Shown here: positions 21,787 through 53,678 of the stretch, one piece after another
Numbering within the stretch: position 1 is the stretch's first letter
Layout: each line of letters opens with the position of its first letter
From: an uncultured Anaerolineales bacterium
GTDB taxonomy: Bacteria; Chloroflexota; Anaerolineae; Anaerolineales; UBA11858
Reading direction: 5' to 3'
NCBI GenBank assembly: GCA_964613985.1
Contig: CAZTJD010000009.1
Span: forward strand, 859-64,858
Length of the DNA stretch: 64,000 nt
Made by a program: the position numbers and the translations under genes
Notes under the pieces: model-generated
The model's database searches: none
What the model saw: only the letters and a program-made list of their open reading frames with translations
What the model was told of the DNA's origin: nothing

Positions 21787-21873
21787 TTAGTCAATTATAA
21801 ATTGCATCAGATATTTGGTAAAACCTTGTGAGCATGCTGTTGTTATCAAGATTACAAGAGGAGACGTTTTTTA

Positions 21874-29226: not shown

Positions 29227-29369
29227 TCACACAATCCTGGTAGCTGATGGACACTCCTTATGTGCTTACAAACAAGGACTCTATAAATGGAAATAACATT
29301 AGCAGATCTACAATCAACTGTCTTGGAAAGAACCTGGATCGGATCGTGGATATCCTCCAAAACAAACGT

Positions 29370-37669
<8,300 letters not shown>

Positions 37670-37709: not shown

Positions 37710-38777
37710 CTAAAGGGAAATACTTACGGCTCCAGTCAGGGAAAGTTCCCTGGCGTGGTGGCATTTCACATAATGAGCAGGTTCAATTTCCTTTAAAGGA
37801 GGTTCATCGGTGGAACAAACGTCTGTCGCATAAGAGCAGCGCGGGTGGAAGTAGCATCCGGATGGTGGGTCAGCAGGGTTAGCAACCTCGCCGCTAAGGA
37901 AAATTCGTTTCTCCCGAGGAAGAGGATTGGGAAGCGGGATCGCTGACATGAGCGCTTCGGTATACGGGTGTTTGGGATTGGTGAATAACTCCCTTGTTGC
38001 TGCTAATTCGACGATCTTCCCAACATACATGACTGCTACACGGTCGCTAATGTGCGCTACAACACTCAAGTCATGCGCAACAAAAAGGTAGGTTAAACCG
38101 AGGTGCTCCTGTAATTCCTTCAACAAATTCAATATTTGCGCCTGTACAGACACATCCAATGCCGAGACAGGTTCGTCACAGACAACAAATGTTGGCAGTG
38201 GAGCCAGGGAACGCGCCAGGCCGATGCGTTGACGCTGGCCACCGCTGAAGGCATGGGGATACCGACGCATGTATTCGGGTCGTAATCCGACCATATTCAG
38301 CATCTCAGCCACCCGGTCTTCAAGTTCTTTCCCACTGGCGATGCCCATCGATTTGAGAGGCGCTCCCACGATTTCCTGAAGGGTCATACGGGGATTTAAG
38401 GAGGCATAAGGATCTTGAAAGATCATCCGGATATGGCGATGGATGATGTTAATCTGCTCTTTTTCAAGCTGGGCAATGTCGATGCGTCCCAAGGATGGGT
38501 CCGTAAACCAGACCTCACCGCTGGTTGGATCAATAGCGCGTAGCATACATCGTCCCGTCGTCGTTTTTCCACAGCCACTTTCACCTACTAACCCTAATGT
38601 TTCCCCTTCGTTTACATAAAAACTTACATCATCGACTGCTTTCACATGCCCGACAACCCTTTTGAAAAAACCGCGAGTAATCGGAAAGTACTTCTTCAAA
38701 CCAATGACTTCCAGCAAAGGCTTATTGTCATCTGTATCCGTCACACTTGGACCTGTTTGGTTAATATTTTCAAGCAT
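37710..38777 (-). CDS. Opp-type ABC ATPase (OppF-like)
   Basis: [30 protein letters not shown]-terminal [10 protein letters not shown]. Confidence 0.9.
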
Positions 38778-38813
38778 TATGATTTCCTTGTAACATGCCA
38801 GCTTAACAGATTT

Positions 38814-39863
38814 CTAGGGGACTGCTTCCGTGTATAGGTGACATCGGACATAGTGTCCGGGTTTTGCCATAATACTCATTGGTTCCACCACATCACAAAG
38901 GTCGGGGATCATTTCGGGACAGCGTGGATAAAATGGGCAGCCCTTGAACTGGGTGTATGGATCAGGCACCATACCCTTGATCGTCTGCAGGCGCTTGCTT
39001 CGATCAGCTAGTGTGATCGTATCATTAAGTTGGGGAATGGACGCCAGTAGCCCACAGGTATAAGGGTGCAGCGGTTCAAAAAAGATGGTTTTTACATCGG
39101 ATTGCTCCACAATTTTGCCCATGTACATCACTGCCACCTCATCCGCCATCTCGGCAATCACGCCCAGGTTGTGAGTGATATACATAATTGCCATACCTAA
39201 CTCGTCCTGGAGTGATCGCATTAGATCCAGGATCTGGGCTTCAGTGGTCACATCCAAGGCGGTAGTCGGCTCATCGGCAATTAACAACGTGGGGTTACAA
39301 CAAAGTGCCATCGCGATTACAGCCCGTTGCCGCATCCCGCCACTTAATTGGAAAGGGTAATCATCAATCACTCGTTCAGGATTGGGCATCTTGGTACGTG
39401 CCAGCATATCAATGGTTTGCTCGATTGCCTCAGTATTGCTTACCTTTTGGTGCAGGATAATGACTTCCGAGATTTGTTTACCGATTGTACGGATTGGGCT
39501 CATCGCCGTCATGGGTTCCTGGAAGACCATTGATATCTGGTTGCCTCGAATATCACGAATTTCACTGCCCCTTGGGTCGAGCGTATGGATTTTTATCTCT
39601 TCCACCATTTCTGAATTATCATCTTCGGATATAGGCCTGTAATAAATAATTTCTCCACTTTCGATCCTGCCAGGATCTGGTATTAACCGCAATAAAGAAA
39701 GGGATGTAACACTCTTACCACAACCACTTTCCCCAACAACGCCCAATGTTTTTCTCTTTCGAACCACCAGGTCAGCACCATCTACAGCTCTCACCACCCC
39801 CTCAGATAGATGAAAGTAAGTATGAAGATCCTTGATTTCTACAAGCACGTCATTTTCGGCCAT
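38814..39863 (-). CDS. Opp-type ABC ATPase (OppD-like)
   Basis: GESGCGKSV, LSGGMRQR, LLIADEPTTALD, C-terminal KGCPFYPRCP. ATG 39863 follows AAGAGG; the ORF opens at 39899. Confidence 0.9.
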   Translation of the reverse strand: MAENDVLVEIKDLHTYFHLSEGVVRAVDGADLVVRKRKTLGVVGESGCGKSVTSLSLLRLIPDPGRIESGEIIYYRPISEDDNSEMVEEIKIHTLDPRGSEIRDIRGNQISMVFQEPMTAMSPIRTIGKQISEVIILHQKVSNTEAIEQTIDMLARTKMPNPERVIDDYPFQLSGGMRQRAVIAMALCCNPTLLIADEPTTALDVTTEAQILDLMRSLQDELGMAIMYITHNLGVIAEMADEVAVMYMGKIVEQSDVKTIFFEPLHPYTCGLLASIPQLNDTITLADRSKRLQTIKGMVPDPYTQFKGCPFYPRCPEMIPDLCDVVEPMSIMAKPGHYVRCHLYTEAVP

Positions 39864-39873
39864 CGAAACCTCT

Positions 39874-41037
39874 TTAAGTAACATATGGATCAGCTGCATC
39901 CCGCATGCCGTCGCCCAGAAAGTTAAACATCAGTACAGCTACAATCACGAAAGCACAAGGCCAGAGTAGCCAGGGCGTTTGGGCAATCGCCCTGATTTCC
40001 TGGGTGTCATTCAGCATCACACCCCAGCTTACGGTCGGTTCATGCAGCCCAATTCCCAGGAAGCTTAGCGAAGTCTCACCCAGGATCATGCCTGGGATAA
40101 ACAGGGTCATTTGCACGATAATATAACTGGCGAACCCGGGAAGCATATAGCGCGTAATAATCCGCCATTCACTTTCGCCATCCAATTTGGCAGCCATAAT
40201 GTAATCTTCTTCGCGCAGGCTCAGCATCTTACCTCGAACCGTGCGCGCCAGCCCGGTCCAACCCAGGATAGAGAGGATGATGGTTACCAATAAATAGGTC
40301 CGCAATTGCGGCCAGTCCTGTGGTAAAGCCGCCGCCAGGGCCATCCATAAAGGAATGGGGGGCATCGAGTACATCACATCGATCACCCTCATCACAACCT
40401 CGTCAATCAAGCCCCCAAAATAACCTGCAGCACCACCCAAAAGCATGCCAAATACAAAAGATAAGGCAATACCAATCAATCCAATGGTTAATGAGATCCG
40501 TCCACCATAGATCACCCGACTGAAGATATCTCGTCCAATCAAGTCACTCCCAAGGAAGAAGACTGGTAATTCGGGATCCGATGTGCCAAACAGGTGAAGG
40601 TCGGTTTTAAACAGTCCCCAGAATTCGTATTCATCGCCATGTACGAGCAGCTTGATCGGGTAAACGGCCTCGATATCTTCCTCGTAAACCGGGCGAAAGG
40701 TTACCGGGTCACGCCCGCGTATGATGCCGTAGATGAATAGCCCTCGAAAATTACCCTGTGTGTCCCGGATATGAATCTTCGAAGGAGCCATGGTGACATA
40801 ATCTTTGAACCTGTGGAGTGCTGCGTATGGGGCGGCAAACTCAGCAAAAATAGCGAATATGTAAAAAATCCCCAGGACAAGAGCACCCAGGTTCGCCAGC
40901 CTATGGCGCCGGAATTTCCACCATACCAACTGCCATTGTCCTGCTCGGTAGAACTCTTCCCCCTTCACTTCTATTTGGTTTTTTTTCATACCTACACGCC
41001 ATTTTTTTCTCTGGGAGTCGATCACTGTATCACTCAT
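39874..41037 (-). CDS. Opp-type ABC permease (OppC-like)
   Basis: ATG 41037 forms an ATGA overlap with the upstream permease stop. N-terminal TM plus loop, then the FLGSDLIGRDIFSRVIYGGRISL core. Confidence 0.85.
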   Translation of the reverse strand: MSDTVIDSQRKKWRVGMKKNQIEVKGEEFYRAGQWQLVWWKFRRHRLANLGALVLGIFYIFAIFAEFAAPYAALHRFKDYVTMAPSKIHIRDTQGNFRGLFIYGIIRGRDPVTFRPVYEEDIEAVYPIKLLVHGDEYEFWGLFKTDLHLFGTSDPELPVFFLGSDLIGRDIFSRVIYGGRISLTIGLIGIALSFVFGMLLGGAAGYFGGLIDEVVMRVIDVMYSMPPIPLWMALAAALPQDWPQLRTYLLVTIILSILGWTGLARTVRGKMLSLREEDYIMAAKLDGESEWRIITRYMLPGFASYIIVQMTLFIPGMILGETSLSFLGIGLHEPTVSWGVMLNDTQEIRAIAQTPWLLWPCAFVIVAVLMFNFLGDGMRDAADPYVT

Positions 41038-42035
41038 GCGCCCTCCAATTTCCCAAAACGTACCCTGGGGTCGATGACGGCTAAACAAATATCCGAAATC
41101 AAGCTGCCTACCGTAACCAACACCCCGGTGATCAGGATGTATGCGCCAGCTGTGTACATATCCTGTCTCAATAAAGAAACCCACAGAACGGGACCAGCAG
41201 TTGGAAGGTTAAGCACCACCTCCACCACCATGCCGCCAGAGAAAAACCACACCAAAAGCCACCCGATGGTGCTGATAAGAGGGTTAAGGGCAATGGGTAT
41301 CGGATAACGCATCAAAACCTGCATCTCTGAAAGCCCTTTCGATCGAGCTACAGTCACATATGGCTTACGCAGTTCATCCAGCATGGTAGCTCGCAGGGTG
41401 CGGATGACATTTGCCGTCCCACCGATTGCCAGGATGATCACCGGGATCCAGAGATGACCTAAAAAATCGACAATTCGATCCCAATTCCAAGGCAATACCA
41501 GGTATTCTGGCGAGTTCAGACCTCCCACACTGACCCCGAATTTACTCCAGGCGAAATACATGATCACTAGGGCTAACAAGAACCCAGGTGTAGCCAATCC
41601 AAAAAAGCCCATAAGCGTAAAGAAGTAATCTGCGAAGGAATACTGCTTCACTGCCACATAAATTCCAATTGGGATCGCTAATCCCCAACTCACAATGAAG
41701 CTTAAAAATGCAATAAAAAAGGTGGTGCCCATCCTGGATAAGAGGATCTCGTTGACCGATCTGTTGAATGAGAACGAATAACCAAAATCCAGCTTAGTGA
41801 TGATGTTTCCAATCCACTTGAGGTACTGTACACTCAGTGGTTGATCAAGGCCATACATCCTGGTGAATCTGGCAACTTGCAACTCATCTATTGTCACACC
41901 GCTTGCTCTCAAGCGATTGAGATATTCAGTAAGATAATCACCTGGTGGGAGTTGGATGATGATAAACGCCAGAACGGAAATGATAATAATTTGTGGGATC
42001 ATGCGCATCAGACGCTTGATGATATACCCTAACAT
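41034..42035 (-). CDS. Opp-type ABC permease (OppB-like)
   Basis: MLGYIIKRLMRMIP start 8 nt after AAGGAGG (the track start at 42044 is a GTG inside the RBS). YVTVARSKGLS motif. Confidence 0.85.
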   Translation of the reverse strand: MLGYIIKRLMRMIPQIIIISVLAFIIIQLPPGDYLTEYLNRLRASGVTIDELQVARFTRMYGLDQPLSVQYLKWIGNIITKLDFGYSFSFNRSVNEILLSRMGTTFFIAFLSFIVSWGLAIPIGIYVAVKQYSFADYFFTLMGFFGLATPGFLLALVIMYFAWSKFGVSVGGLNSPEYLVLPWNWDRIVDFLGHLWIPVIILAIGGTANVIRTLRATMLDELRKPYVTVARSKGLSEMQVLMRYPIPIALNPLISTIGWLLVWFFSGGMVVEVVLNLPTAGPVLWVSLLRQDMYTAGAYILITGVLVTVGSLISDICLAVIDPRVRFGKLEGA

Positions 42036-42330
42036 TAGATGCACCTCCTTCTTACTGGGATAAGAATATTATACATGTTTTAAACCATCATGTGGGTGGG
42101 TTGCGGAGTAATAAATAGAGGGGGAAACGGCAGGTATCACTCAGAGGTTTCCTGAACAGAGTGTGGGATTGACGACAATATCACAGGATGAATTCGACCT
42201 TTTAAACAGGATCTAAGGACAGCCCAACTCGTATTAAAAAAAGGGGGGGCTTAACTTACCAGCTTTGGTCCTTCCAAATGTTCAATGGACAACTCTAAAA
42301 CAATCTAACTCGAGGGAGACGCAAATTAGA

Positions 42331-42373
42331 TTCATAAAATACAGGATGCAAACACAGAGCTTGCATCCTGTAT
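42331..42373 (-). terminator. Hairpin terminator/attenuator after the binding-protein gene
   Basis: On the minus strand: atacaggatgcaa-gctctgtgt-ttgcatcctgtat (13-bp stem) followed by tttatg. It lies 16 nt after the SBP stop. Confidence 0.65.
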
Positions 42374-42388
42374 TGATTCAGTTAAATC

Positions 42389-44491
42389 CTAGGCCCGAAC
42401 GCCACCTTCGTAGAAGAAGGCTTCAGGATGATAGGTTGATAGGCCGTAAGTGTCCCAGCCGATTGTTGCTTTAGGTCGCGGCAGGTTTCGCAGGTTCTTA
42501 TTGAACAGCAGCGGAGCTGGGATCTCCAAAACTAGTCCAATCTCCAGAGGCTTATCTGCCAGGTAATCGAAGATCATCTGCCCGTACTTGACGCGCTCGT
42601 CTTCACTGACCACCGAGGTAACCTGATCAAAGTAGCCATAAAGCTCTTTGATCTCATCGGGCGGCTGAATCAGGTCTTCTGCCGTGCGGTCAGCCGCATT
42701 GAACCAGTTGTTCCAGGCAGCACAGGCACCTCCCTGCTGGGGGTCACCCGTTGGGATGTACCACTGCGGTTGGACGTGCCATAGCAAATCCGTGCAGCGG
42801 TCGGCATGCCAGATGCCACAATGGGTCTGGAAGTTCTGCATACGTTCGTTGTACAAGGCTTCCTGCATCTCTTTGGCGGAGGTATCGATGCCAATCTCAC
42901 GCCAAAAGGTAGTGGTCATCTCGCAGATTTTAGCGATAGCGGGACCGACGCGAGGACCACAGTGTTCGATCAGGTATGCCAGTCGTTCGCCATCCGGGCG
43001 TAGTCGGAAGCCCTCGGAGTCTCTCTGGTCCAAGCCCATCTCGTCCAGTAGCTGGTTGGCAAGGTCTGGGTCATACTGCGCCCAGGCTTCACCATATTCT
43101 GGTTTGTAGTACTTAGACGAAGGTATTGGGGCTTGTTGTCCCATGCGTGCCAATCCAAAGAACAAGCTTTCGTTGATCTCGCTGCGGTCGATCGCCACAG
43201 ACAGCGCCCGAACCCAGTTCGGATGGTTGACAATCTCAGTCAGTACAGGATCATCGACCAGATAATGCTGCGGGAACAGGACAGGCCTGTCGCTCATGCA
43301 GGAGATAAAATCACCTACCACCCAGGAACTGTCGGCCTCATTCTCCTTATAGAGCGGGAAATTGGCAACCGTGACATCATGCATCCCGACGGCATCTAGT
43401 TGGTCCTGAAGGATCATAAGCTGGGTATTTTCTAAAGTGGAAGAATAATCGTAACGCAGCGTGTCAATGTAGGGCAGCTGGTTGCCTGCCAGGTCCACTT
43501 TCCAATAGTATGGGTTGCGCTCTAACAGGAAGAGGCCTTCTGAGGGGCGCTCAACAATCATCCAGGGGCTTAATACAGGGTAGTTATCCTCTACAATCCA
43601 ATCAGGACCTTGCCATACCCCGGCTCCCCATTGATTAAAGCGTTGGCTTGCTAACTGGACCCAACCCTCAAGACCCAAATCCGCAGCTTTCGCATTCAAT
43701 TCCGCCTCGTCGCCATACTTGGGCAAGTATTGCTTCAAGTAATGGGCGGGGGCGATAAAGCTGTCCCAGTTATTGGGTTCCATACGGGTTATGTGAGCCG
43801 GGAAGTTCCCAAAAGGTGCTGCATGGGTGATTTTGAAAGTGTAATCATCGATGATGTCTACCTTCATATTCTCGCCACCAAAGCGGAACTTCCAGACCAC
43901 ACTCGCATTAAGATCTGTGTTAAGATGAAAATCCTCCCAGTAAAAGCGGACATCTTCGGTTGTGAGTGGCTCACCATCAGAATATTTCATGCCTTTACGC
44001 ATGTAAAATGTATATTCTTTGCCATCGGGAGTAACCTCCCAGCTTTCGATGATATTCCCGACGATGGTGCGCATGTCGAGATCCGTATAGTGCAGGAGAC
44101 GTTCAGCATTCCAGTCGTAGTTGCTGACAAACCAAACTGGGTCAAAGTGTTGCATTCGAACTTCGCCACCGTATACACCGATGGCATCACGCCCCCCTAC
44201 CACGGCTGGATTCTCTGGTAAGCGTTCGTCCACCGGAGGGAGCTCACCAGCAGCAACTTTATCCGCCAGGAAAGGTGGCTCGGCTCTACCCGCCTCCACC
44301 TCCACCTCAACGATCTTGGTTGCCTCAACGATTTTCTCCTTTTCGATCTCAACGATCTGGGTCTCCTTGATCACTTCCGTGATCACTTCTGGTTCGACTG
44401 TCCCAGCACCACAAGCTGTTGCAAGTGCCCCTAGAACTGTCGTAGCCGACATTTTCAAGAAATCTCGGCGTTTAATTTCTGGTGTTTTCAT
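42389..44491 (-). CDS. Large family-5 ABC substrate-binding protein, Tat-signal lipoprotein (probable oligosaccharide binder)
   Basis: MKTPEIKRRDFLKMSATTVLGALATAC combines a twin-arginine motif with a lipobox. An E/V/I/K-rich linker precedes the SBP_bac_5-like body. ATG 44491 follows GGAGG; the ORF opens at 44503. Confidence 0.85.
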   Translation of the reverse strand: MKTPEIKRRDFLKMSATTVLGALATACGAGTVEPEVITEVIKETQIVEIEKEKIVEATKIVEVEVEAGRAEPPFLADKVAAGELPPVDERLPENPAVVGGRDAIGVYGGEVRMQHFDPVWFVSNYDWNAERLLHYTDLDMRTIVGNIIESWEVTPDGKEYTFYMRKGMKYSDGEPLTTEDVRFYWEDFHLNTDLNASVVWKFRFGGENMKVDIIDDYTFKITHAAPFGNFPAHITRMEPNNWDSFIAPAHYLKQYLPKYGDEAELNAKAADLGLEGWVQLASQRFNQWGAGVWQGPDWIVEDNYPVLSPWMIVERPSEGLFLLERNPYYWKVDLAGNQLPYIDTLRYDYSSTLENTQLMILQDQLDAVGMHDVTVANFPLYKENEADSSWVVGDFISCMSDRPVLFPQHYLVDDPVLTEIVNHPNWVRALSVAIDRSEINESLFFGLARMGQQAPIPSSKYYKPEYGEAWAQYDPDLANQLLDEMGLDQRDSEGFRLRPDGERLAYLIEHCGPRVGPAIAKICEMTTTFWREIGIDTSAKEMQEALYNERMQNFQTHCGIWHADRCTDLLWHVQPQWYIPTGDPQQGGACAAWNNWFNAADRTAEDLIQPPDEIKELYGYFDQVTSVVSEDERVKYGQMIFDYLADKPLEIGLVLEIPAPLLFNKNLRNLPRPKATIGWDTYGLSTYHPEAFFYEGGVRA

Positions 44492-44610
44492 TTCTTCCTC
44501 CATTATAAAATTAGATTCTGATTACGACTTAATACAGCATCAAACAACGCCAAACTGGCAATGTTCCCAATATTACTTTATCATCGCTTAGACTGGATTA
44601 CTATCACTTT

Positions 44611-44647: not shown

Positions 44648-47236
44648 CTAAATTCTTTCAGCTTGATCTTTGAGATCACGATTGCTAATAGGTTCGAAGT
44701 TGAGGCGCAAGGCATCCTCGCCATATCCAATTTCCATTTGCTTGCAGGGAAATCTGGAGGCGGCGAAGATACTCTCATAATGCTCGTATCCAGAGAGTGG
44801 TTCCTCCTGCCCATCTCGCATGAAAGGTTTATCCCAACCAAAGGTAAGTGTCTCATTCCGCAAAGTCGTACAGCGGACAAATCCATCCTCAAATGCGATG
44901 GGTAAGGCCAATACCTTGTCCTGGAATATACTAAAATCAACATCCAACGCTTTCCGTCCCATGTGGCACAGCCAGACATTGTCTTGTCCGAACGAACGTA
45001 ATTCCCGATAAGCATATTGCCCCCGGCGGATGAGGTCGAATCCTCTGGCGGCAGTTAAAGCCAGATAGCCCTCAGCCTTACGGGCAAAAGCCCAGTTACC
45101 TTGGAAGACATATTCATCGAAGGCATAAATTGGAAAATAAGCATGGGTAAAGCCCATCCAATCATCTTCTGGAAGCTGATAGAATGCAATAAGAATGTCC
45201 TTCCATTGGGCGACTCTCGGCAGGGTGGAATTACCAGCCCAAAAGTTCGCTTGACGGGCATCCTTCTCACTCGTACTTGCCGGATGGGTGACGAAAACCG
45301 TGGCATCTGCGCCTAATGTTGCCTGCCAAATATGCTCTAGTTTTCCATTTTTACCAGGTTTATAATCCTGAGCGGAACAAAGCATTGTATCGGGGGTCTT
45401 GTAGGTAACCTTGTTCACAAACAATTCATCTTCTAACGCATGACGTTCCCGGTTCCATAACTCCTCTGGTCTTGAGTTGGCAATACCGGAGATAACCGAA
45501 GGGAGTTCATACCCGTTCATGCAGGCTAAGCTGACTGTCCCAGCGATATGATGGTTGAAGATTCCAGTCCCCCACATCAGCCGGGTAATACCAGATGTAG
45601 GCTCTAAGTAACCTCCTTTCACAAATGAGGCGTACGTTCGACCGTGGGTCGACCCAAACACACCTTGAAATGAATTGATTGCGATTGTAGTAAAAAGTTT
45701 GTCCATCAAAATTGCTGACATTTCTCGTATAGATTCGTCCTCAGCCAGGTCCACCAGGTGGGCAAGTATGGCAAGATACGATTCGAAAGACACATTCGAA
45801 TCCCAGGCTGAAAATCCTTGGGTACTGCATCGATGCAACCAGTCCAAAATCAGACCAACACCATGTTCACGGTGCCATTGCCCCATTTTCCCAAGATGCG
45901 TGAATGTTCTAACGGGATAAAGCTGCCCTGCCAGGACTTCACTGGCATGTAGCAAGATTTGGTCGCTCTCGCGGTCTCCAGGATCTGCCGTCCATCCTGT
46001 ATCAATTCCAAAAGGGAAACCCAGGATTATTCCCTCGATAGGTTTTAGTAATTCCTTGGGAAACTGCTTGTGATTGCCAAACCGGCATACCATCCCTAAG
46101 ATACCCAATAAATCCAATCCGTGCAGGGTTTTCAAGGTACTAAAGATAATGTCAGTGTCAATCGCTTTCCACTGGTCGAGAACCATTTTGGCGATCTCTG
46201 CAAATAAGCCCTTCTCATTAGAGGCGTTGACCAAGGCTTCCTGACGTCGTTCCTCATACGAACCGTAGGGGAAAGCTGAATACCTTTTTCTACCCAGGTT
46301 CCATAAATTGAACTCGTGCGTTATCCTTAGATCTTGTTCGTAATATTCTCCGATGAGAGGCATCATCAGGATTCTGTAAGGTCCTTCTGGGATTTGGTAG
46401 GGCAGGCTGAGAAAAACCTGGTCGCCTGGGGTTCCATCAACGGTTGCCTCAGCATAAATTCGCCCGGTTGGCGTTTGGAGACGAACCACTGCTGGAGAAG
46501 CCTTTTCCATATCTTCTGTCCAGTGAAGATTAATCTGGCTTTCACCTTGGAAAACATCCTGGAGGATGAATGCGGCTTGATATGCCCGTTCAATATCATT
46601 CCGGCGCGAGATATCGGCGATCAGGGTTGGGATCGTCACGTGAATGCCTGAATACGCAGGGTAAGGTTGCCCGGGTGAAACTGCCTCGCAAACTTGCAAC
46701 GCCATAACATTTGGGCATTGCAGTAGGGCAACTGCCTCAAAACGCACCAATATCTTATTAACACCTTTTTTTAAAAACACTTTGAATGAGGTGCTGCCTG
46801 GGTGTTGATCGAAAAAATGCTCCTGGCGATGTACATGTTCCCAGTTCAGCCAGACATCCGCCGGACCATGAGTGGTCAACACCAGCAACACTTCCTGGTC
46901 CATTTTGCATGTAAGTTGGGTATATGCCCAGGAACGAAGGTAATGAGGGGTAGGATAAGATCCTGAATGGTCAACCTGGTGATCCTCCCGGCAGGTTTGA
47001 TAATCCCATGAACCCTTGTAATCTCCAACCTGAAAGAATCCTTTGGTTAATGGACCTCGTTCAACAGGCGTTTGGTTGATCCCAGACCGGGATTCGAAAA
47101 AATATTGCGCGATCTGCTTCCTGAGATCCTCTCCTTGGAAATTATCGACATCAAACGGAATCCGCTGAGGACCAGCAACCAGCCAGTTGTGAATGTACCC
47201 GTGCTCAAGGTTGTAGTTAACATGGCGATAGCGCAT
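44648..47236 (-). CDS. Conserved-looking 862-aa cytoplasmic protein of unknown function (candidate novel carbohydrate-active enzyme)
   Basis: A long uninterrupted ORF with no signal peptide or TM. By composition it has an N-terminal beta-rich region, a central helix-rich region and a C-terminal beta-rich region. I recognised no catalytic motif. Confidence 0.6.
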   Translation of the reverse strand: MRYRHVNYNLEHGYIHNWLVAGPQRIPFDVDNFQGEDLRKQIAQYFFESRSGINQTPVERGPLTKGFFQVGDYKGSWDYQTCREDHQVDHSGSYPTPHYLRSWAYTQLTCKMDQEVLLVLTTHGPADVWLNWEHVHRQEHFFDQHPGSTSFKVFLKKGVNKILVRFEAVALLQCPNVMALQVCEAVSPGQPYPAYSGIHVTIPTLIADISRRNDIERAYQAAFILQDVFQGESQINLHWTEDMEKASPAVVRLQTPTGRIYAEATVDGTPGDQVFLSLPYQIPEGPYRILMMPLIGEYYEQDLRITHEFNLWNLGRKRYSAFPYGSYEERRQEALVNASNEKGLFAEIAKMVLDQWKAIDTDIIFSTLKTLHGLDLLGILGMVCRFGNHKQFPKELLKPIEGIILGFPFGIDTGWTADPGDRESDQILLHASEVLAGQLYPVRTFTHLGKMGQWHREHGVGLILDWLHRCSTQGFSAWDSNVSFESYLAILAHLVDLAEDESIREMSAILMDKLFTTIAINSFQGVFGSTHGRTYASFVKGGYLEPTSGITRLMWGTGIFNHHIAGTVSLACMNGYELPSVISGIANSRPEELWNRERHALEDELFVNKVTYKTPDTMLCSAQDYKPGKNGKLEHIWQATLGADATVFVTHPASTSEKDARQANFWAGNSTLPRVAQWKDILIAFYQLPEDDWMGFTHAYFPIYAFDEYVFQGNWAFARKAEGYLALTAARGFDLIRRGQYAYRELRSFGQDNVWLCHMGRKALDVDFSIFQDKVLALPIAFEDGFVRCTTLRNETLTFGWDKPFMRDGQEEPLSGYEHYESIFAASRFPCKQMEIGYGEDALRLNFEPISNRDLKDQAERI

Positions 47237-47251
47237 GAGTATGGGTGTCTC

Positions 47252-47698
47252 CTAATCGATACTATTTATCTTTTTATCCCTGACTGCAGCCAATGCCAGG
47301 CCTATACCTAATTCAGATGCGAGAATCAGCCAACGTAGCAGGTCATCACTGCGAATTCCTTGCAGCCAGAAGAGAATTAAATCAACGGCAAAAACACAAA
47401 GCAACAAAGGTCCAGTAACTCTGGCAAAACGCTTGAGTAGAGACTCGTTCCTGGCACCTGTGCGATAAAAATCTTCAGTGATGATGGAAAATACCAACCA
47501 ACCTAAACCAAGGATAACGGTGAACACAATGTTTATAAAATTCACCATCTTTGTATATTCATAATTACCTGTCTTATAAAACAAGGCGAGAAGACCAAGG
47601 AGTACTGTTCTGCTGATATAAGTAAGCCAGCCAGCCAATCCTAGATCCACAATCCATAAAGCATATGCAGTTACATATTTAAGGATTCTTTCCAACAT
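47252..47698 (-). CDS. Small 4-TM membrane protein, unknown function
   Basis: 148 aa with four clear hydrophobic helices. It overlaps the upstream receiver gene by 20 nt. Confidence 0.6.
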   Translation of the reverse strand: MLERILKYVTAYALWIVDLGLAGWLTYISRTVLLGLLALFYKTGNYEYTKMVNFINIVFTVILGLGWLVFSIITEDFYRTGARNESLLKRFARVTGPLLLCVFAVDLILFWLQGIRSDDLLRWLILASELGIGLALAAVRDKKINSID

Positions 47699-48071
47699 AC
47701 TTTTTCGTCAGAATTGATTCCAAGGCGGCTTGGAAATCTGCGTACAATATGGGCATCCGCATGTACATGTCTGCCCCTTCCGCCAATGCAAGGTTCTCTT
47801 CATCCAACCATGAACAGACAATTATCGGTATTCTACCTGCTTCCGGATCGGTTTTCAACTCTCGAAGGATTCGCCAACCAATAGTTTCGGGTACATCAAC
47901 CGCTAACACAATAACAACGGGTTTCTCGCAACGGGCTAAAGCAAGTAGATCATCCCCAAGATTCCCAGCAATAATCTTATAAGCGCTTCTCCGAACATAA
48001 CGCTGCATTAAATACAAGAAATGAGAATTTTCCCCTACGATCATGATACGATTTTTTAAAATCTGGTCCAT
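47679..48071 (-). CDS. Stand-alone receiver (REC) domain protein with degenerate active site
   Basis: 130 aa with a CheY-like pattern. The acidic pair is replaced (IMIVGENSH). The phospho-acceptor-position Asp is present (LAVDVPE). S is at the T/S position (IIVCSW). The conserved Lys-Pro is replaced by RMP. Confidence 0.7.
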   Translation of the reverse strand: MDQILKNRIMIVGENSHFLYLMQRYVRRSAYKIIAGNLGDDLLALARCEKPVVIVLAVDVPETIGWRILRELKTDPEAGRIPIIVCSWLDEENLALAEGADMYMRMPILYADFQAALESILTKKYVGKNP

Positions 48072-48251: not shown

Positions 48252-51200
48252 TTATTTGTTGCTATCCAAACACCGACTCTGTAAATAAGCCCGAGGGGAG
48301 ACCCCCACTTGTTCTCGAAAAACACGAGTAAAATAACTGCTGCTAGAAAATCCGACTTCCATAGCTATCTCAGTGATCCCCATTCTGCCTTCATCCAACA
48401 TAACTTTTGCCTGTTTTACACGGTAACGGTTGAGATAAGTGATTGGCGTTATCCCCACTTCCTGACGGAAACAACGCGTCAGGTGGCGTTCACTTAACCC
48501 TACATATTTGGCAACATCGCTACGGGAGACAGGTTCAGTGTAATTGGCATGAATATAAGCCATTGCTTTCAAAGCGAGTCGCTGTATTTCTACACCGGGT
48601 TTACGCTTTCGTTCCAGGGCGTTGGTCAGGTGTTCCAATGTTTCATCAACGCTGAACATGCCTTTCCCGAGTACGCTTGCAGCACCAGCGTTTAGGCGAG
48701 ACATATCTTCATCTGTCAGCATTTGTCCAGTGATCACCACGACTGGGGTGCTGCGGGTTAAATCGTTTTTCCGCATTTCCTCCAATACACCAAAGCCATC
48801 GAGCTCTGGCATCAATAAATCGAGCAGAACCAATGAGGGTCGCTCCTTATAAATCAGTTGCAGCGCTTGGCGCCCATCTCTTGCAAAAAGAATTCGATGG
48901 CCTGGCAATTGAGCTTCAATGATACGGGCATGGAGTTCTAGAATCCCTGGATCATCATCTACAACCAGAATGGCCCTTCCATCATCCCAGGAACCTTCTG
49001 AATTTAACAATCCCTTTGAAGATATCAGTTCCGTCAAGGCGGCCGGTCCAAGTGGCTTGGTCAGATAATCGATTTCCAGGAATGAGACTCCCTCAGCATT
49101 ATCTTTTACTGCATAAAACACGACAGGAATTTCTTTTGTGGCGGGGTTCTCTTTTAGGATTTTAAGAATTTCCCAGCCGCGTTCTGAAGTCAAGCCGAGA
49201 TCGAGCATTACTACATCAGGCGCCGCAAGCAGCAGGTTAGCTAACCAGTCATTGTCTTCCTGTAATAAACACAACTCTGCCTCATAACCGTGTTTAATGA
49301 GGTGTCCTATCAGGTGACCACTACCTTCTTCGTGCTTAACCAACAGGAGTACTCGTTGCGCTTCGGAAAAGGGAACGAACTTTTCTGATAAATTCTCTTG
49401 TCGTTCGAAGATCGGTAAGGAGAAGAAAAACATCGAGCCTCCCCCTTCGTCGCCGGAAGAGTATACGCCAATCTCACCACCATGCATTTCTACCAACTTC
49501 CGGCAAATGGCCAACCCTAAGCCCAAGCCACCATAGCCGCGAGCGGTAGCGCGTTCTGATTGACGGAACTCATCGAAGATCACCTTCTGTTCATGCAGGG
49601 GAATACCCAGGCCTGTATCAATCACGGACACGATAATATGCCCCTTTTCAAGCCTGGCGGTCAGGTTTATTTCTCCACGTGTGGTGAATTTAACCGCATT
49701 GTTGACCAGATTCAGAGCAACCTGGCGTAGACGGGTACGGTCACCCCAAACACGAGGCAGATTTCGAGCAATTTCATCATGCCAAGCCAACCCTTTATCG
49801 CGAGCAAGTTGCTCGCCAATCACGATTACGGCGTCCAAAACTTCAGTTATGTCTAATGGCTCACAAACGAGTTTCAATTGACCCACATCACTGCTAGCAA
49901 GATCCAATACATCCCGAATTAAACCATCCAAATGTTGGGCACTGATGTAAATACGTTGCAGGTCTTCTTTAATACTGATTTGAGGATCCGCCTGGAGATT
50001 TTCCCCGCTTTCATTTGTTTCATCTAATAGAATGTTGCTTAGTCCAGTGATCAGGTTTAGAGGTGTGCGTAATTCATGGCTGACCATAGAAAGAAATCGG
50101 CTTTTCAGGTGATTTGCCTCCTCAGCTAACTGTTGTGCTGCCACAGCCTCCCGGTATAGTCTAACACTTCGCAGCGACGCACCCAATTGCCGTACAATAT
50201 CCGCACAGGGACTCAAGTTGCTGGCATCAAAGGAGACAAATCCGCACACATCATTTTGTATCGTCAAAGGAAGTACTGCTTGTTGGTAAGCTTTTTCTTC
50301 AGGATAAAGTCCCCTGGGAGGGAAACTACGAGTTGGGAAACGATACTCTGGTTCGAGGCGTAATTTCCTATTAAATGAACAACAAGGTGTCTGTAGCACA
50401 CTCCATGCGACAGGATCTTGCTCCTCTTCTTCATAATATCCCACTGAGGCATCATGAATCCCAATCGAAGGCAAGTTCTTGATTAATACATCAAAAATTT
50501 CCTGTTCATCATTTGCAACAAAGAACTTACTGGTCATCAAGCCAACCTGGTCTGCTTCGCGCGCCTGTTTGAGTAAAGCCCGTGTGAATTGCCCAAGAGC
50601 AACCTCACTGATGGCAACGCGCCCCTGGTGAAGTAAATCCTCTTCCTGGTGGACAGAAAGTCGGGTCGAGACTACTTGGTGGATCAAATGGAGTTGGTCT
50701 CGTAAAATTGTGATTGCAGTTTGCCAAGTAAAAAGATCATCTCCACGAATAGACACACGCTGCAGGATCTTCTTAATCATCATTAGAAAGTTCTGTGGAT
50801 TATTCTGTTCCAGACTCAATAAGAACGCTTCTACCAGTTGAGTCACCGTAGAGACAATTTCATCTTTGTTCAACCATAACGATTCTTTGTGAACTGCGGA
50901 GGTCATTTGCTCAATCAAATGAGAAATAACATCGTACGTTTTCCTCTCCTTTTCAACCTTACTGGCTCCTTCATTGTCCTTAGTGCCAAGAACTCCCTGT
51001 AAACATCCACAGGACTCCCGAATCACCAGGTTAGTTGGGATAAGAACCAACTCCTCGTTCACTGATTCTCCTTCGATAGCTCGCAACAAAAGGCCAACGG
51101 ACTGGTAGCCTAAGCCAAACATTGGGTAATGTACTGTGGTGAGAGGTGGGTTTACCGCACGAGCTTCAAGCCGGTCGTCAAAACCGATTATGGCGATATC

Positions 51201-51914
51201 CTGCGGTACTTTTAAACCAGCCTGGTTTAAACCATCTAATACCCCCATTGCTGATCGATCGTTGCTGGCAATCACAGCTGTAAAATTTTCGCCCTGATTG
51301 ATGATCTTCTGAATGGCTTGGCGTCCACCTTCGTAGAGGTGTGAACCATACGCAACCAGCTTCGGATTAAAGGGTAGTCCAAAGGAAATTACTTCGTCTT
51401 CGAACGCACGTAAGCGAATTCCACTATCCCCGTGTTCTGAATGTTGGCGACCAGCCACGAAAGCAATCCGGCGGTGACCATGTTCCACAAGATGCTCAAC
51501 TGCCTGGTGGATACCTCCATGGTTGTCAGCGACAACGCCTGGTCCGGAATCGCGATCACCAGCATAAACGGTTGGAAAACCGCTGGAAACCAGATCCCTG
51601 GCGTAGCAATCCCCCGCTTCCGAAGCAAAAGGGGAAACGATAATTAATCCATCCGTATTCCAAGGACCAACCGGCACAAAGTCAACTTCAGGTGAGAGTA
51701 ATGGCCAGGCAGGTTTTCCAGGGTCAATGCCGCAAGCCATTAGCAGGTTACAATCGTATTCACTCGCCGCAGCCTGGATGCCTCTAAATACATGCTCAAG
51801 GAAGCTATCTGGAGTTCCCGTATATACTTTCCATCCAGCCAATACACCGATCGTGACCCTGCCATGTTTACCCATGGATTTCATGATACCATTTATAGAC
51901 TTCAACCGGTCCAC
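48252..51914 (-). CDS. Soluble hybrid sensor-regulator: PBP1 sugar-binding domain, GAF-like linker, HisKA, HATPase, REC (degenerate), REC, AraC-type HTH
   Basis: 1220 aa, GTG start (alternative ATG at 51884). A LacI-type ligand domain without HTH (VTIGVLAG..., AVIASNDRSAMGVLDGL, IIGFDD). H-box SHELRTPLN. N/G boxes NLVNNAVKFT, DTGLGIP, GGLGLGLAICRKLVEMHGG. REC2 VVDDDPG...LLDLLMPELDG. C-terminal AraC HTH (SERHLTRCFRQEVGITP...GFSSSSYFTRVFRE). No hydrophobic segment. Confidence 0.85.
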   Translation of the reverse strand: MDRLKSINGIMKSMGKHGRVTIGVLAGWKVYTGTPDSFLEHVFRGIQAAASEYDCNLLMACGIDPGKPAWPLLSPEVDFVPVGPWNTDGLIIVSPFASEAGDCYARDLVSSGFPTVYAGDRDSGPGVVADNHGGIHQAVEHLVEHGHRRIAFVAGRQHSEHGDSGIRLRAFEDEVISFGLPFNPKLVAYGSHLYEGGRQAIQKIINQGENFTAVIASNDRSAMGVLDGLNQAGLKVPQDIAIIGFDDRLEARAVNPPLTTVHYPMFGLGYQSVGLLLRAIEGESVNEELVLIPTNLVIRESCGCLQGVLGTKDNEGASKVEKERKTYDVISHLIEQMTSAVHKESLWLNKDEIVSTVTQLVEAFLLSLEQNNPQNFLMMIKKILQRVSIRGDDLFTWQTAITILRDQLHLIHQVVSTRLSVHQEEDLLHQGRVAISEVALGQFTRALLKQAREADQVGLMTSKFFVANDEQEIFDVLIKNLPSIGIHDASVGYYEEEEQDPVAWSVLQTPCCSFNRKLRLEPEYRFPTRSFPPRGLYPEEKAYQQAVLPLTIQNDVCGFVSFDASNLSPCADIVRQLGASLRSVRLYREAVAAQQLAEEANHLKSRFLSMVSHELRTPLNLITGLSNILLDETNESGENLQADPQISIKEDLQRIYISAQHLDGLIRDVLDLASSDVGQLKLVCEPLDITEVLDAVIVIGEQLARDKGLAWHDEIARNLPRVWGDRTRLRQVALNLVNNAVKFTTRGEINLTARLEKGHIIVSVIDTGLGIPLHEQKVIFDEFRQSERATARGYGGLGLGLAICRKLVEMHGGEIGVYSSGDEGGGSMFFFSLPIFERQENLSEKFVPFSEAQRVLLLVKHEEGSGHLIGHLIKHGYEAELCLLQEDNDWLANLLLAAPDVVMLDLGLTSERGWEILKILKENPATKEIPVVFYAVKDNAEGVSFLEIDYLTKPLGPAALTELISSKGLLNSEGSWDDGRAILVVDDDPGILELHARIIEAQLPGHRILFARDGRQALQLIYKERPSLVLLDLLMPELDGFGVLEEMRKNDLTRSTPVVVITGQMLTDEDMSRLNAGAASVLGKGMFSVDETLEHLTNALERKRKPGVEIQRLALKAMAYIHANYTEPVSRSDVAKYVGLSERHLTRCFRQEVGITPITYLNRYRVKQAKVMLDEGRMGITEIAMEVGFSSSSYFTRVFREQVGVSPRAYLQSRCLDSNK

Positions 51915-53678
51915 ATGAGTTTAGTAATTGTGCTTAAAAATATACAACACCAATCCTTATTATACCTAATCTTCGTCATTTTCCTTTATGGCGCTTTACT
52001 CTTGCCTTCGGTTCCTCGGCAAGGTATATCGTGGGATGAGCAAACGGATATTGATATTGCCAGATTTTACCTATCACAGCCTGGAGGTTGGTTGCTTGGC
52101 TCAGATTCTGATCCAAGTCAGGCTCGTCTACCGATGTACGTCGTGGCAATGATCTATAAACTTATAGGAGTGGATAATCTGCTGACAGCCCGGTACACGA
52201 GTGTTATTGTGGGTGGACTAACAATCTTGGGGGTTTATATCTTTTGTAAACAGGAGTACGACTCGAAGCGAGGTGTTCTTGCGGCAGGTATTCTGGCGAC
52301 AAGTCCATTTTTTTTGTCATTTGCGAAGACTGCATTCACTGAGACGGATATTTATGCCGCCTGCCTCTTCATCTGGTTTCTAGTATGTTTCTCAAATTTT
52401 CATGCAAAGCGCACCATCATGTCTGCCTGGATCGCTGCAGCTGTCTTGGGTTTGGCGATATCCTCCAAGTTCACAGCATTATTTCTTTATCCAGCCATAC
52501 TGGTCCATATCTTTTCCTGGCTGGGTCAGAATACGAAGCAAGCAAATATCCGCCTTCGCGCCATTGTTGGTATCGCTGTACCCTTGATTATATTATTTTC
52601 AATAGCCTTCCTTAGCTGGACTGGTGCTGATCTCCCATTTGGCGCTCAAAATAATACCGTCGTCGCAGTGACCTATTATTTATTGGCGATGATTTGTTGG
52701 GCAGTAATCTTGCTTTGGGTTGCAAACCATCATGATCAAACCGCTTCCCCATACATCCTGGGAATCCTGGTTTTAGTCCTGGCAACCACCACCTTCATTA
52801 TGTTCCCTCCGGTGCACCTCACCAATCCTGATATTATTCATAGTTTATTTTACCGGGTAGATCATGAAATGGGGCTGAATTTAAAATTTATGGTGGAGGC
52901 AATTGGACTACATTTGGGGTGTGTGATATTTAAGTCAAGTCCAATGGTGGGGTTCGGACTTCTTGCAGGAATTATTTGGGCTGTCCTGCAGTGGAAGAAG
53001 CAAAAGCAGGTTCGCATGCCTCTCCTGGTAGTGATTTTTTATTTTATGGGGCTTGCTAGCCTGCCAATTGCGCAAACTTTTTACATGGTGCCATTGCTTC
53101 CATTCCTGGCGATATTAGGGGCAGATCTTTGGTTCAGTCTTCAATTCAGTCATCAAAAGTTGGCAGTACTTGTCGGAGTCGTTGCGATTTTCTTATTGGC
53201 TGTGGATTTAGCTTGCTGCTACCCTGATTACAACCTGAATGGTTACCAGTGGTTGGGACCCAGGAATTTTTTGGGCAGACCAACCATAGGATACCGAAGT
53301 ATCGTCCAGACCACCTCCGATGGAGTTCAACAGACCATTCAATGGGTGTGTCAAAATGCGAAGCATGATGATCGGGTTGTGATATTCGCGTATCCCTGGC
53401 ACATCGTTGAAGCCAGTTGCCCGGACCCAACCTTTCGTATCAGCCGTGGACAACAAGATTCATTGCTTTCCAGACCTGATTTTGTGCTTATCCATATCAA
53501 TCATCGGATTCGTGCCAGCTGGTCTGCCTGGATTCCTAGGTGGGATAGCAGCCAACCTGTAGATAGTATTTTCTGGGAACCCTGTGATAACGACTGGTTG
53601 GATGAGAACTATACCAAGGTATATTCTGTGCCAAGAGCGTTTGGGATCGAAATGGCAAGTGTATACCAAAGGAAGTAA
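51915..53678 (+). CDS. GT-C-fold membrane glycosyltransferase (ArnT/PMT-like, GT39/GT83-type)
   Basis: About 587 aa from ATG 51915 (MSLVIVL...), more than 10 TM. First-loop acidic motif GISWDEQTD. C-terminal soluble domain. The ORF opens at 51792 inside the divergent gene. Confidence 0.65.
   Translation: MSLVIVLKNIQHQSLLYLIFVIFLYGALLLPSVPRQGISWDEQTDIDIARFYLSQPGGWLLGSDSDPSQARLPMYVVAMIYKLIGVDNLLTARYTSVIVGGLTILGVYIFCKQEYDSKRGVLAAGILATSPFFLSFAKTAFTETDIYAACLFIWFLVCFSNFHAKRTIMSAWIAAAVLGLAISSKFTALFLYPAILVHIFSWLGQNTKQANIRLRAIVGIAVPLIILFSIAFLSWTGADLPFGAQNNTVVAVTYYLLAMICWAVILLWVANHHDQTASPYILGILVLVLATTTFIMFPPVHLTNPDIIHSLFYRVDHEMGLNLKFMVEAIGLHLGCVIFKSSPMVGFGLLAGIIWAVLQWKKQKQVRMPLLVVIFYFMGLASLPIAQTFYMVPLLPFLAILGADLWFSLQFSHQKLAVLVGVVAIFLLAVDLACCYPDYNLNGYQWLGPRNFLGRPTIGYRSIVQTTSDGVQQTIQWVCQNAKHDDRVVIFAYPWHIVEASCPDPTFRISRGQQDSLLSRPDFVLIHINHRIRASWSAWIPRWDSSQPVDSIFWEPCDNDWLDENYTKVYSVPRAFGIEMASVYQRK

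Follow-up and report, generated by a model that had tools for sequence, protein, structure and literature searches.

The gene analyzed here lies in a 64,000-nucleotide stretch of DNA from an uncultured Anaerolineales bacterium of the Chloroflexota, which we refer to as the window, and to which all positions below apply. It is found between a set of regulatory genes and an Opp-type importer, which is followed by an array of glycosidases:

24353..37609, minus strand: glycosidase array, including a TMEM260-like protein (557 aa) and an FtsX-domain protein (954 aa)
24353-26362, minus strand: GH42, within the array
29370-32675, minus strand: second LacZ-type GH2, within the array
34229-37609, minus strand: LacZ-type GH2, within the array
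37710..44503, minus strand: Opp-type ABC importer, with a 704-aa SBP_bac_5 lipoprotein (42389-44503), two permeases, and two ATPases (37710-42044)
44648..47236, minus strand: the 862-aa target ORF, with an ATG start, a lyase-fold family member
47252..47698, minus strand: 148-aa membrane protein (3-4 hydrophobic segments); a gap of 15 nt separates it from the target downstream
47679..48071, minus strand: REC-only protein with an atypical receiver (Pfam REC 30.1 bits against a cutoff of 30.2)
48252..51914, minus strand: cytoplasmic hybrid sensor with a LacI-type sugar-binding domain, HisKA/HATPase, REC, and AraC HTH, and no TM segment
53789..56110, minus strand: GH31 alpha-xylosidase of the YicI type (Pfam; NCBIfam equivalog, 1275 bits against a cutoff of 606)

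The 862-aa ORF is a genuine gene, and its start is backed by homologs that align from residue 1 (A1 consensus). An earlier sequence-only reading of the window had described it as a long coding ORF flanked by the regulatory genes and the importer, sharing its strand with two GH2 genes and a GH42 gene and lying near a GH31 gene, and had called its product cytoplasmic and motif-less; this description stood in full. The protein is cytoplasmic, with no TM segment or signal peptide detected, and searches of Pfam, NCBIfam, and the PDB sequences returned no match at E<=1 with the protein itself or at E<=10 with family profiles. Three such profiles (A1, A2, and A3) gave nothing significant against all PDB sequences, and none of Hepar_II_III, DUF4962, Alginate_lyase, or Lyase_8 was hit when 17 distant family members were scanned at E<=10. 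A scan for promoters and terminators around the gene gave counts no better than those of shuffled sequences. The gene had also been taken for the only unassigned one of enzyme size in the window, which it is not: an 890-aa ORF (57954-60626) has no Pfam match, and the FtsX-domain and TMEM260-like proteins are only partly assigned.

The 148-aa membrane protein is the most constant neighbor of the long-form proteins. It has no significant match in Pfam, its 160 homologs of about 148 aa are all stand-alone (one stray precomputed Pfam tag occurs among the 120 listed), and fusions of this four-TM partner to the large protein were seen neither among 454 family members nor among the 160 small-protein homologs. 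A rough detection of the small upstream ORF by its TM segments was dropped, as it recovered 30/81 loci and under-called relative to homology. The REC-only and 148-aa genes overlap by 20 nt, stop of the former with start of the latter; of 21 orthologs of the receiver, 13 have the acceptor Asp, and every one has Arg in place of the conserved Lys.

The 862-aa protein belongs to a very large family. We recovered more than 619 full-length homologs, and the family comprises 2877 clusters at 50% identity, with 393 confirmed matching stretches in species-representative genomes and members in the Chloroflexota, Bacteroidota, and Planctomycetota. It is thus a large family with neither a Pfam nor an NCBIfam entry and with no solved relative by sequence, and our search of the literature found no prior description of it, or of pseudo-lyases. 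Besides the long forms there is a short subfamily of 620-700 aa. An Opp-type importer is linked to the family in approximately 57/91 loci.

To describe the architecture of the protein we used AlphaFold models (AF2) of the full-length chain and of the core, which was re-modeled alone because GH2 matches dominated the whole-chain Foldseek search. The core model has a pLDDT of 95.6 and a pTM of 0.94. Four domains are distinguished:

46667..47236, minus strand: N-terminal beta jelly-roll domain, residues 1-190 (AF2 model; Foldseek matches to GH2 N-terminal domains)
47009-47041, minus strand: clade-specific conserved insertion G66-S76 in the jelly-roll domain
46298..46645, minus strand: second, Ig-like beta domain, residues 198-313 (AF2 model), missing from the 620-700-aa short subfamily
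45467..46258, minus strand: incomplete alpha/alpha toroid, residues 327-590 (core model and Foldseek)
44687..45460, minus strand: C-terminal beta-sandwich, residues 593-850 (core model)

This agrees with the beta/helical/beta layout and the possible alpha/alpha toroid proposed from the sequence. Mean conservation is similar across the four domains (0.67-0.76), and purifying selection is still acting on all of them. Membership in GH2 was considered and rejected: the whole-chain Foldseek matches to GH2 (TM ~0.1) span the two N-terminal beta domains only, the TIM-barrel is absent, the center of the protein is helical, and there is no Glyco_hydro_2_C match.

As modeled, the core has the fold of uronic-acid polysaccharide lyases, in which an incomplete alpha/alpha toroid is joined to a beta-sandwich. 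The best Foldseek matches to the core are human dermatan-sulfate (DS) epimerase 1 (6hzn; E 4.3e-7, prob 1.0), PL15 (3a0o/3afl), a chondroitinase (9o3q), and PL8 lyases, with further matches to 7r2x, 1f1s, and 9irq; the full-length model adds the PL12 heparinase III (5jmd). Since the TM-scores to the lyases are low (0.2-0.36) and only two matches reach E<=1e-3, the predicted relationship of the family to known lyases is remote. Structures of GH127, GH146, GH63, and GH139 come up at low probability only, with E>=0.014. The architecture is shared with the PL12 heparinase III (BT4657) and with PL8 hyaluronate, chondroitin, and alginate lyases, although the matches to these are again distant (TM 0.23-0.36, E 1e-5 to 3e-2) and there is no shared motif and no heparinase H-x-H.

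The structural neighbors are therefore uronate lyases and an epimerase, with no GH1, GH3, GH65, GH94, or other phosphorylase fold among the significant matches to the core. This bears on the role proposed by the sequence-only reading, in which the protein would belong to a new CAZyme family as an active enzyme, giving a beta-glucosidase-type or phosphorylase backbone cleavage of galactosylated or xylosylated oligosaccharides, for example xyloglucan fragments. The gene content is consistent with such a gap, as the locus encodes two LacZ-type GH2, a GH42, and a YicI-type alpha-xylosidase without a beta-glucosidase, and the protein is cytoplasmic and conserved. However, nothing specific ties it to glucosides or phosphate, and a xyloglucan target for the locus is not a conserved feature, because a GH31 gene lies near a homolog of the target in only 1/91 loci. 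We consider backbone cleavage improbable, also in light of the residue changes described below. What the same reading had named beforehand as grounds for giving up a carbohydrate role was in no case found: the linkage to sugar-utilization genes is kept across phyla, Pfam gives no confident match to a non-carbohydrate family, and the model matches carbohydrate-enzyme folds.

Among 454 aligned members, 217 carry the motif N424/H425/Y483/H531/R533/Y535 (numbered as in the window protein), and we refer to these as canonical. In 216 canonical members the N and H are 100% conserved within E-N-H-Q, in which the Asn would be a putative carboxylate binder and the His a putative catalytic base. The Tyr of S-N-x-Y, likewise 100% conserved, sits 58 residues after the His, and canonical members also carry H-G-R-x-Y. 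This spacing is close to the 53-56 residues reported for the catalytic His and Tyr of DS-epimerase 1 (DS-epi1; H205/Y261), Atu3025 (H311/Y365), BIexoHep, and VBAly15A. The PL15 enzymes (Atu3025, 3a0o/3afl; BIexoHep) resemble the family further in being cytoplasmic or exo-acting enzymes on imported oligosaccharides and in having later His residues in the sandwich, with a His...Tyr spacing of 54 residues; they differ in that there is no detectable sequence similarity, no Hepar_II_III or DUF4962 match, and a TM-score of only 0.2-0.25. DS-epi1, the best structural match to the toroid and sandwich, is a eukaryotic Golgi enzyme acting on a polymer with ~10% identity; its catalytic His205 and Tyr261 are 56 residues apart, and a second Tyr (Y473) and His450 come from later in the chain. 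A canonical-only profile searched against the PDB had as its best match BoPL38 (PL38/PL5-type, 8bdq), at a nonsignificant E of 0.64 and one residue out of register, which is suggestive only; this is the sole PDB sequence touched by the profile, and the match runs across N241-N242-H243. In BoPL38, N242 binds the uronate carboxylate, H243 is a catalytic base, H243 and Y298 are 55 residues apart, and the N242D/A and H243N variants are inactive. Unlike the family, BoPL38 is a single-domain toroid with no beta-sandwich.

We infer from spacing, conservation, helix position, and the nonsignificant sequence alignment that N424, H425, and Y483 are the ancestral catalytic residues. Fusions to GH88/105 recur in canonical cores of the Bacteroidota, so that an association with uronate processing is seen for these relatives. 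Because of the N-H...Y residues, the linkage to sugar importers, and the GH88/105 fusions, the canonical members probably represent a new lyase or epimerase family, and most likely are intracellular or periplasmic oligo-uronide lyases or epimerases of a new PL-like family. This makes it a concrete candidate for a new family of polysaccharide lyases or uronyl epimerases, for which the canonical short forms and the canonical copies in beta-galactosidase operons (L024-type) are clear targets for expression.

The window protein departs from this pattern, as the full motif is found in 0/81 of the sequences at least 58% identical to it. The positions concerned are:

45959..45970, minus strand: E423-S-D-Q426, the degenerate counterpart of canonical E-N-H-Q by alignment
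45788..45799, minus strand: S480-N-V-S483, the degenerate counterpart of canonical S-N-x-Y by alignment
45632..45649, minus strand: T-H-G-R-T-Y, residues 530-535, kept in the window protein
45332..45337, minus strand: E634-H635, with Q to E at 634 in the window clade

The window protein thus has S424, D425, and S483, where its clade is variable at the N and H and has S, A, T, D, or V at the Tyr. Losses are concentrated in the toroid (E410, N424, H425, H430, N447, E477, Y483, D487, and Y535), and the former active-site positions are variable in the clade with no new fixed set in their place. At position 634, 87-92% of canonical members have Gln and 89-99% of the window clade have Glu; no other polar change in the core is newly fixed. 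D479, K513, and D680 were considered as clade-specific gains that could form a new catalytic set and were rejected, being common to the canonical long-form sister group; truly clade-specific are only E634 and the N-terminal insertion, around which G61, F68, G71, Y73, G75, E84, and S102 are at least 90% conserved in the window clade only. In the beta-sandwich, H635, W637, Q638, H651, N669, R674, Q677, H698, and Y700 are polar residues invariant across the whole family.

The window protein accordingly shows the two-domain fold of the toroid and beta-sandwich lyases (PL8, PL12, PL15, PL17, PL21, PL33, PL35) and DS-epimerase, and shows neither a match to a family HMM or solved member nor the catalytic His and Tyr ~55 residues apart with a carboxylate-neutralizing Asn (or Gln/Arg). 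It has D425 and S483 in place of the PL15 His and Tyr, lacks the DS-epi1 dyad, and has S-D at the N-H motif of BoPL38. The proposal of a new CAZyme family therefore holds at the level of the family, by fold, novelty, and linkage to sugar genes, but the window protein cannot simply be taken for an active lyase of such a family, because its own clade lacks the Asn-His...Tyr residues. With the predicted catalytic residues lost on its own branch, the protein is unlikely to be a lyase or to supply the missing backbone cleavage, and it would no longer carry out beta-elimination or epimerization.

Lyase or epimerase chemistry could have been kept by other residues (H531/R533/Y535 and H698/Y700), the substrates being acidic galacto-oligosaccharides, for example pectic or arabinogalactan-protein fragments. 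The window protein does keep T-H-G-R-T-Y and H698-A-Y700, DS-epi1 likewise makes use of its later-chain Y473 and His450, and loci with beta-galactosidases could target GlcA-capped galactans; against this, Y535 is kept in only 18/81 close relatives and H531 and R533 drift too, the equivalent Asn and His substitutions abolish BoPL38 activity, and the 64-kb window, with its beta-galactosidase locus, encodes no GH88/105, KduI/KduD, or other uronate-pathway gene. We regard this as highly improbable. It should be noted that the invariant His, Arg, Gln, Asn, and Tyr of the beta-sandwich are retained in the window clade, so that an active site could lie there, intact; these residues may alternatively form only a structural metal site, by analogy with PL15, PL17, PL21, and DS-epi1.

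Phylogenetic analysis, by a quick neighbor-joining distance tree without support values and with the motif columns left out, placed the window protein in a clade of 216 sequences, all of which (100%) are degenerate and 192 of which carry E634. The window clade is a monophyletic sub-clade of the family, from Chloroflexota. It travels with the pseudo-receiver, the four-TM protein, the cytoplasmic hybrid sensor kinase, the Opp-type importer, and LacZ-type beta-galactosidases, and its tightest conserved linkage is to the REC-only and four-TM proteins, not to the glycosidases. HK/REC neighbors were found for 16/26 degenerate copies versus 4/54 canonical copies (Fisher p = 5e-7). Intermediates occur in GH42/GH2 operons: L024 is canonical, P0107 has S-H-T-Y, and L019 has S-H-S-S-E, the latter two, partly degenerate, being encoded between an ABC ATPase and GH42 in catabolic operons with no sensor nearby.

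We favor, at a probability of about 0.6, the explanation in which the window protein, a member of a lyase-fold family, lost the ancestral lyase/epimerase site and was repurposed. The family core has, as modeled, the two-domain fold of enzymes acting by abstraction of the C5 proton from uronic acids (lyases of PL15, PL8, PL12, and the PL38 type, and DS-epimerase), and the window sub-clade would have arisen from a canonical-type enzyme in a locus with beta-galactosidases and an Opp importer. The fold, the size of the family, the loss of residues, the monophyly, and the correlation with gene context are direct results of the analysis. As to present activity, which we infer throughout, our preference is that the remodeled cleft handles a neutral imported galacto- or xylo-oligosaccharide instead of a uronide. 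Tentatively, it may process this oligosaccharide by a new chemistry using E634/H635 and the pre-existing acidic D479, D512, and D680; a role in binding alone, with the protein accessory to the sensor module, is possible if somewhat doubtful. A polysaccharide-lyase scaffold that lost its lyase site and gained another function has a precedent in GH145, a family of hydrolases whose lyase-type fold carries its active site at a new location. GH145 has a beta-propeller fold, unlike the toroid and sandwich of the window protein, and our results give no support for the window protein as a hydrolase. For the backbone cleavage considered above, the loss of the uronate-binding Asn and the gain of E634 would fit a switch to a neutral substrate, and GH145 would again be a precedent, but E634 alone is new and no carboxylate pair is newly fixed.

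The context also suggests a pure pseudoenzyme without catalysis, a cytoplasmic glycan receptor or adaptor that would modulate the hybrid sensor kinase together with the four-TM protein and the pseudo-receiver. This is in line with the variability of the old active-site positions, not swapped for a new fixed set, and with the tight packing and coinheritance of the target gene with those of the REC-only and small TM proteins. L004 has the HK-REC-small-target module by itself, neither a transporter nor a glycosidase being encoded within 10 kb of it, and L016 and L018 have the same layout, their flanks having been screened only for relatives of the window's own genes. The clade-specific N-terminal insertion could be a new interaction surface. 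The variable cleft speaks equally against a conserved ligand site, however, a LacI-type sugar-binding domain is already part of the kinase itself, E634 is newly fixed beside the invariant H635, L019 and P0107 are in catabolic operons, and the protein-protein interaction is purely conjectural; on balance we find a complete loss of catalysis doubtful. More specifically, the lyase-derived pseudoenzyme might have been recruited into signaling as a cytoplasmic oligosaccharide receptor gating the LacI-domain hybrid kinase, tethered to or partnered with the four-TM protein and a phosphorylation-independent pseudo-receiver, which we think rather unlikely. The kinase would then control the beta-galactoside importer and glycosidase regulon, and the arrangement would represent a so far undescribed kind of sugar-sensing module in the Chloroflexota, derived from an ex-CAZyme of an undescribed family.

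The window clade is maintained across many Chloroflexota beside a sensor module despite the loss of the predicted catalytic residues, and annotation by fold or family would mislead for this gene. Should the protein turn out to be a repurposed enzyme or to act as a pseudoenzyme sensor, it would offer a well-documented example from nature of a change of function in a CAZyme scaffold, and the living intermediates from L024 through P0107 and L019 to the window clade would make the path testable.

Two minor observations concern the neighbors and names of family members. The "alpha-glucosidase" names in the P0249 cluster are a clustering artifact, as they belong to GH97 neighbors. The canonical long-form copies adjoin a B12 radical-SAM gene, an unusual partner for a sugar lyase, which we counted against the lyase-type reading.

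The 862-codon ORF starts at an ATG that is backed by homologues aligning from their first residues, and it lies where the sequence-only reading had placed it, between regulatory genes and an oligosaccharide importer and near GH2, GH2, GH42 and GH31 genes, all on the minus strand:

44648-47236, minus strand: ORF of the window protein, 862 codons
47252-47698, minus strand: 148-aa membrane protein with three to four hydrophobic segments, upstream
47679-48071, minus strand: receiver (REC)-only protein, upstream
48252-51914, minus strand: hybrid sensor with LacI-type binding domain, HisKA/HATPase, REC and AraC HTH, upstream
37710-44503, minus strand: Opp-type importer, downstream
Minus strand, downstream: two LacZ-type GH2 genes and one GH42 gene
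Minus strand, further upstream: YicI-type GH31 alpha-xylosidase

The REC-only and small membrane protein genes overlap by 20 nt, and the latter is separated from the target by 15 nt; this three-gene cluster is set off from the SBP and kinase genes by gaps of 144 and 180 nt. The window protein showed neither a hydrophobic segment nor a signal peptide, in agreement with the cytoplasmic location first proposed, and the failure to place a family signature by eye was mirrored by searches of Pfam-A and NCBIfam (no match at E ≤ 1) and of all PDB sequences (no meaningful match). The further claim that this was the only unassigned enzyme-sized gene has to be dropped: ORF 57954-60626 (plus strand, 890 aa) equally lacks a Pfam match. 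That ORF has a sub-threshold NCBIfam match to "PDIAV motif lipoprotein"; downstream of it come a sugar-nucleotide epimerase/dehydratase, a hexapeptide acyltransferase and a GT2.

A word-indexed search recovered more than 619 full-length homologues, all annotated "hypothetical"; those with organism names belong to the Anaerolineae and other Chloroflexota. A profile search of 1.84 billion representatives returned 2877 cluster representatives at E ≤ 1e-3, and 393 matching stretches were confirmed in species-representative genomes, several of which carry two copies; the family sampling is skewed towards relatives of the window protein. Distant members, found in Planctomycetota, Bacteroidota and Anaerolineae, are 620-700 aa long and have neither of the N-terminal beta domains, so that the conserved core consists of the helical domain and the C-terminal beta-sandwich. 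Family profiles found no solved structure among PDB sequences, and literature searches found no description of the family.

The full-length AlphaFold model (pLDDT 81.9, pTM 0.80) reproduces the beta/helical/beta layout guessed by eye, with beta domains at residues 1-190 and 198-313, helices at 327-590 and a beta domain at 593-850. The GH2 matches that dominated the whole-chain Foldseek search were rejected, as none extends past the N-terminal jelly-roll and Ig-like domains; heparinase III (PL12) was alone in spanning the core. When the core (residues 316-862) was modelled separately with a 77-sequence alignment (pLDDT 95.6, pTM 0.94), its best PDB match was human dermatan-sulfate epimerase 1 (DS-epi1; E 4.3e-7, probability 1.0), followed by the PL15 alginate lyase Atu3025, a chondroitinase, and PL8 hyaluronate and alginate lyases, with GH127 and GH146 appearing only at E ≥ 0.014. 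The TM-scores of 0.2-0.36 are low, and the relationship to known enzymes is therefore remote. The good core matches all combine an incomplete alpha/alpha toroid with a beta-sandwich, and all abstract the C5 proton from a uronic acid. The proposal of a candidate new CAZyme family thus stands at the family level, which is new, CAZyme-like and of conserved sugar context; its structural class is that of uronate lyases and epimerases, not of glucosidases or phosphorylases, which makes it less likely that the window protein supplies the backbone cleavage thought to be missing from the locus.

The toroid of many members carries the motifs T-E-N-H-Q, S-N-x-Y and T-H-G-R-T-Y. In canonical members, which carry equivalents of N424, H425 and Y483, the His precedes the first Tyr by 58 residues, and in the core model the two sit close to the beginning of alternate long helices; the corresponding spacing is 53-56 in DS-epi1 (His205/Tyr261), Atu3025 (His311/Tyr365), BIexoHep (His337/Tyr390), VBAly15A (His226/Tyr280) and BoPL38 (H243/Y298), residues taken from the literature. 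In BoPL38 N242 is reported as the carboxylate binder, and the N242D/A and H243N variants as inactive. BoPL38 is also the best PDB match of the canonical-member profile, spanning N241-N242-H243 one residue out of register, a sequence bridge that at E = 0.64 is only suggestive. We infer from spacing, conservation, helix position and this non-significant alignment that the canonical Asn, His and Tyr are catalytic.

N424/H425/Y483 are present in 217 of 454 aligned members, 182 of which also show the full N481/H531/R533/Y535 pattern, versus none of the 81 sequences at least 58% identical to the window protein, which itself has S424, D425 and S483. Positions that are conserved in canonical members but vary across the window clade are concentrated in the toroid (E410, N424, H425, H430, N447, E477, Y483, D487, Y535, D588 and Y617). 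The polar residues of the beta-sandwich (H635, W637, Q638, H651, N669, R674, Q677, H698 and Y700) are all but invariant in canonical members and window clade alike. Q634 to E is the only newly fixed polar change, at 99% in the inner clade, and the window clade also gained an insertion, itself conserved, at residues 66-76 of the N-terminal domain. Mean conservation is similar across all four domains, indicating that the window protein is maintained by selection.

A lyase role of canonical members is supported by Bacteroidota proteins in which a canonical core is recurrently fused to a C-terminal GH88/105-like domain (locus L092, 10001-12988; locus L011, 5492-8524), since GH88/105 enzymes take off the unsaturated uronate that lyases leave. 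These fusions sit in SusC/SusD/SusE PULs with GH76, GH125 and GH97; elsewhere the core occurs in an arabinose/GH51/GH127 cluster with GH2 nearby (a Bacteroidales MAG) and, in another genome, in a minimal operon made up of LacI, Opp and the core. Sugar-linked surroundings are conserved across phyla. The usual link of the GH76/GH125/GH97 set is to alpha-mannan, not obviously to uronides.

A distance tree calculated with motif columns removed, and carrying no support values, places the window protein inside a clade of 216 sequences, all degenerate at N-H...Y, with E634 in 192. Degenerate copies follow the order hybrid kinase, REC-only, small membrane protein, target, SBP/OppBCDF and GH2. Kinase/REC genes accompany 16 of 26 degenerate copies and 4 of 54 canonical ones (16/10 versus 4/50; Fisher p = 5e-7). 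Upstream of canonical copies is a different Opp system whose SBP is ~30% identical, and these copies are usually preceded by a class-B B12 radical-SAM gene, seen in 36 loci. One lineage has the four-gene sensor module without a window-type transporter or glycosidases nearby (L004, L016, L018), flanks being fully annotated for L004 and screened for window-gene relatives in the other two. At locus L024 the copy is fully canonical and its compact operon comprises SBP, Opp, small membrane protein, target, GH42 and GH2, and the partly degenerate P0107 (S-H-T-Y) and L019 (S-H-S-S-E) copies occupy the same operon type with no sensor; residue loss therefore seems to have arisen within a beta-galactosidase-locus lineage.

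The window protein lacks the predicted catalytic Asn, His and Tyr, and no uronate-pathway genes were found within the window; we conclude that it is most likely a repurposed ex-lyase, residual lyase activity being less likely. The repurposed protein might process neutral imported oligosaccharides by a new chemistry, for which E634/H635 are the leading candidates, or might be a sensor-module accessory that only binds them, and we give these two roughly equal weight.

The hybrid kinase is free of TM segments; this single-protein sensor (LacI-type ligand domain, HK, REC, AraC HTH) is cytoplasmic, similar in logic to the Bacteroides hybrid two-component systems but sensing inside the cell. The REC-only protein is atypical (30.1 bits against a Pfam cutoff of 30.2): its orthologues have the expected phospho-acceptor Asp in 13/21 and Arg for the conserved Lys in 21/21, and it may be a phosphorylation-independent pseudo-receiver. 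The small membrane protein has no significant family match; its 160 stand-alone homologues are nearly constant in length and lie directly upstream of long-form members (those with both N-terminal beta domains), in canonical and degenerate loci alike. The radical-SAM gene (L009, 7743-9470, and 35 other loci, e.g. L017, L025-L028, L032-L034) is conserved in Chloroflexota directly upstream of the small membrane protein gene and canonical-type copies; its similarity to P-/C-methyltransferase families is no more than weak, and its pairing with a putative sugar lyase is unexplained.

The glycosidase array also includes a 954-aa protein that ends in an FtsX permease domain (26362-29226, minus; FtsX-like homologues in the related loci L012, L024 and L070) and a separate ABC ATPase (23486-24220, minus). 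Membrane glycosyltransferase-like proteins occur in or beside the catabolic locus: a TMEM260-like ORF (32566-34239, minus; recurring in L019 and L024) overlaps the 5' end of the listed GH2 ORF, and a PMT_2 ORF (51792-53678, plus) overlaps the GTG start listed for the hybrid kinase; more internal sites are therefore probably the true starts. A second, LacI-family regulated Opp-type system (10914-20323, plus) comprises two permeases, two ATPases and a 597-aa SBP_bac_5 protein, after which come zinc- and iron-type alcohol dehydrogenases, then two URO-D-like proteins (20782-22857). An IstB-like IS21 helper ATPase at the window edge (99-842, plus) suggests that a mobile element is close by.
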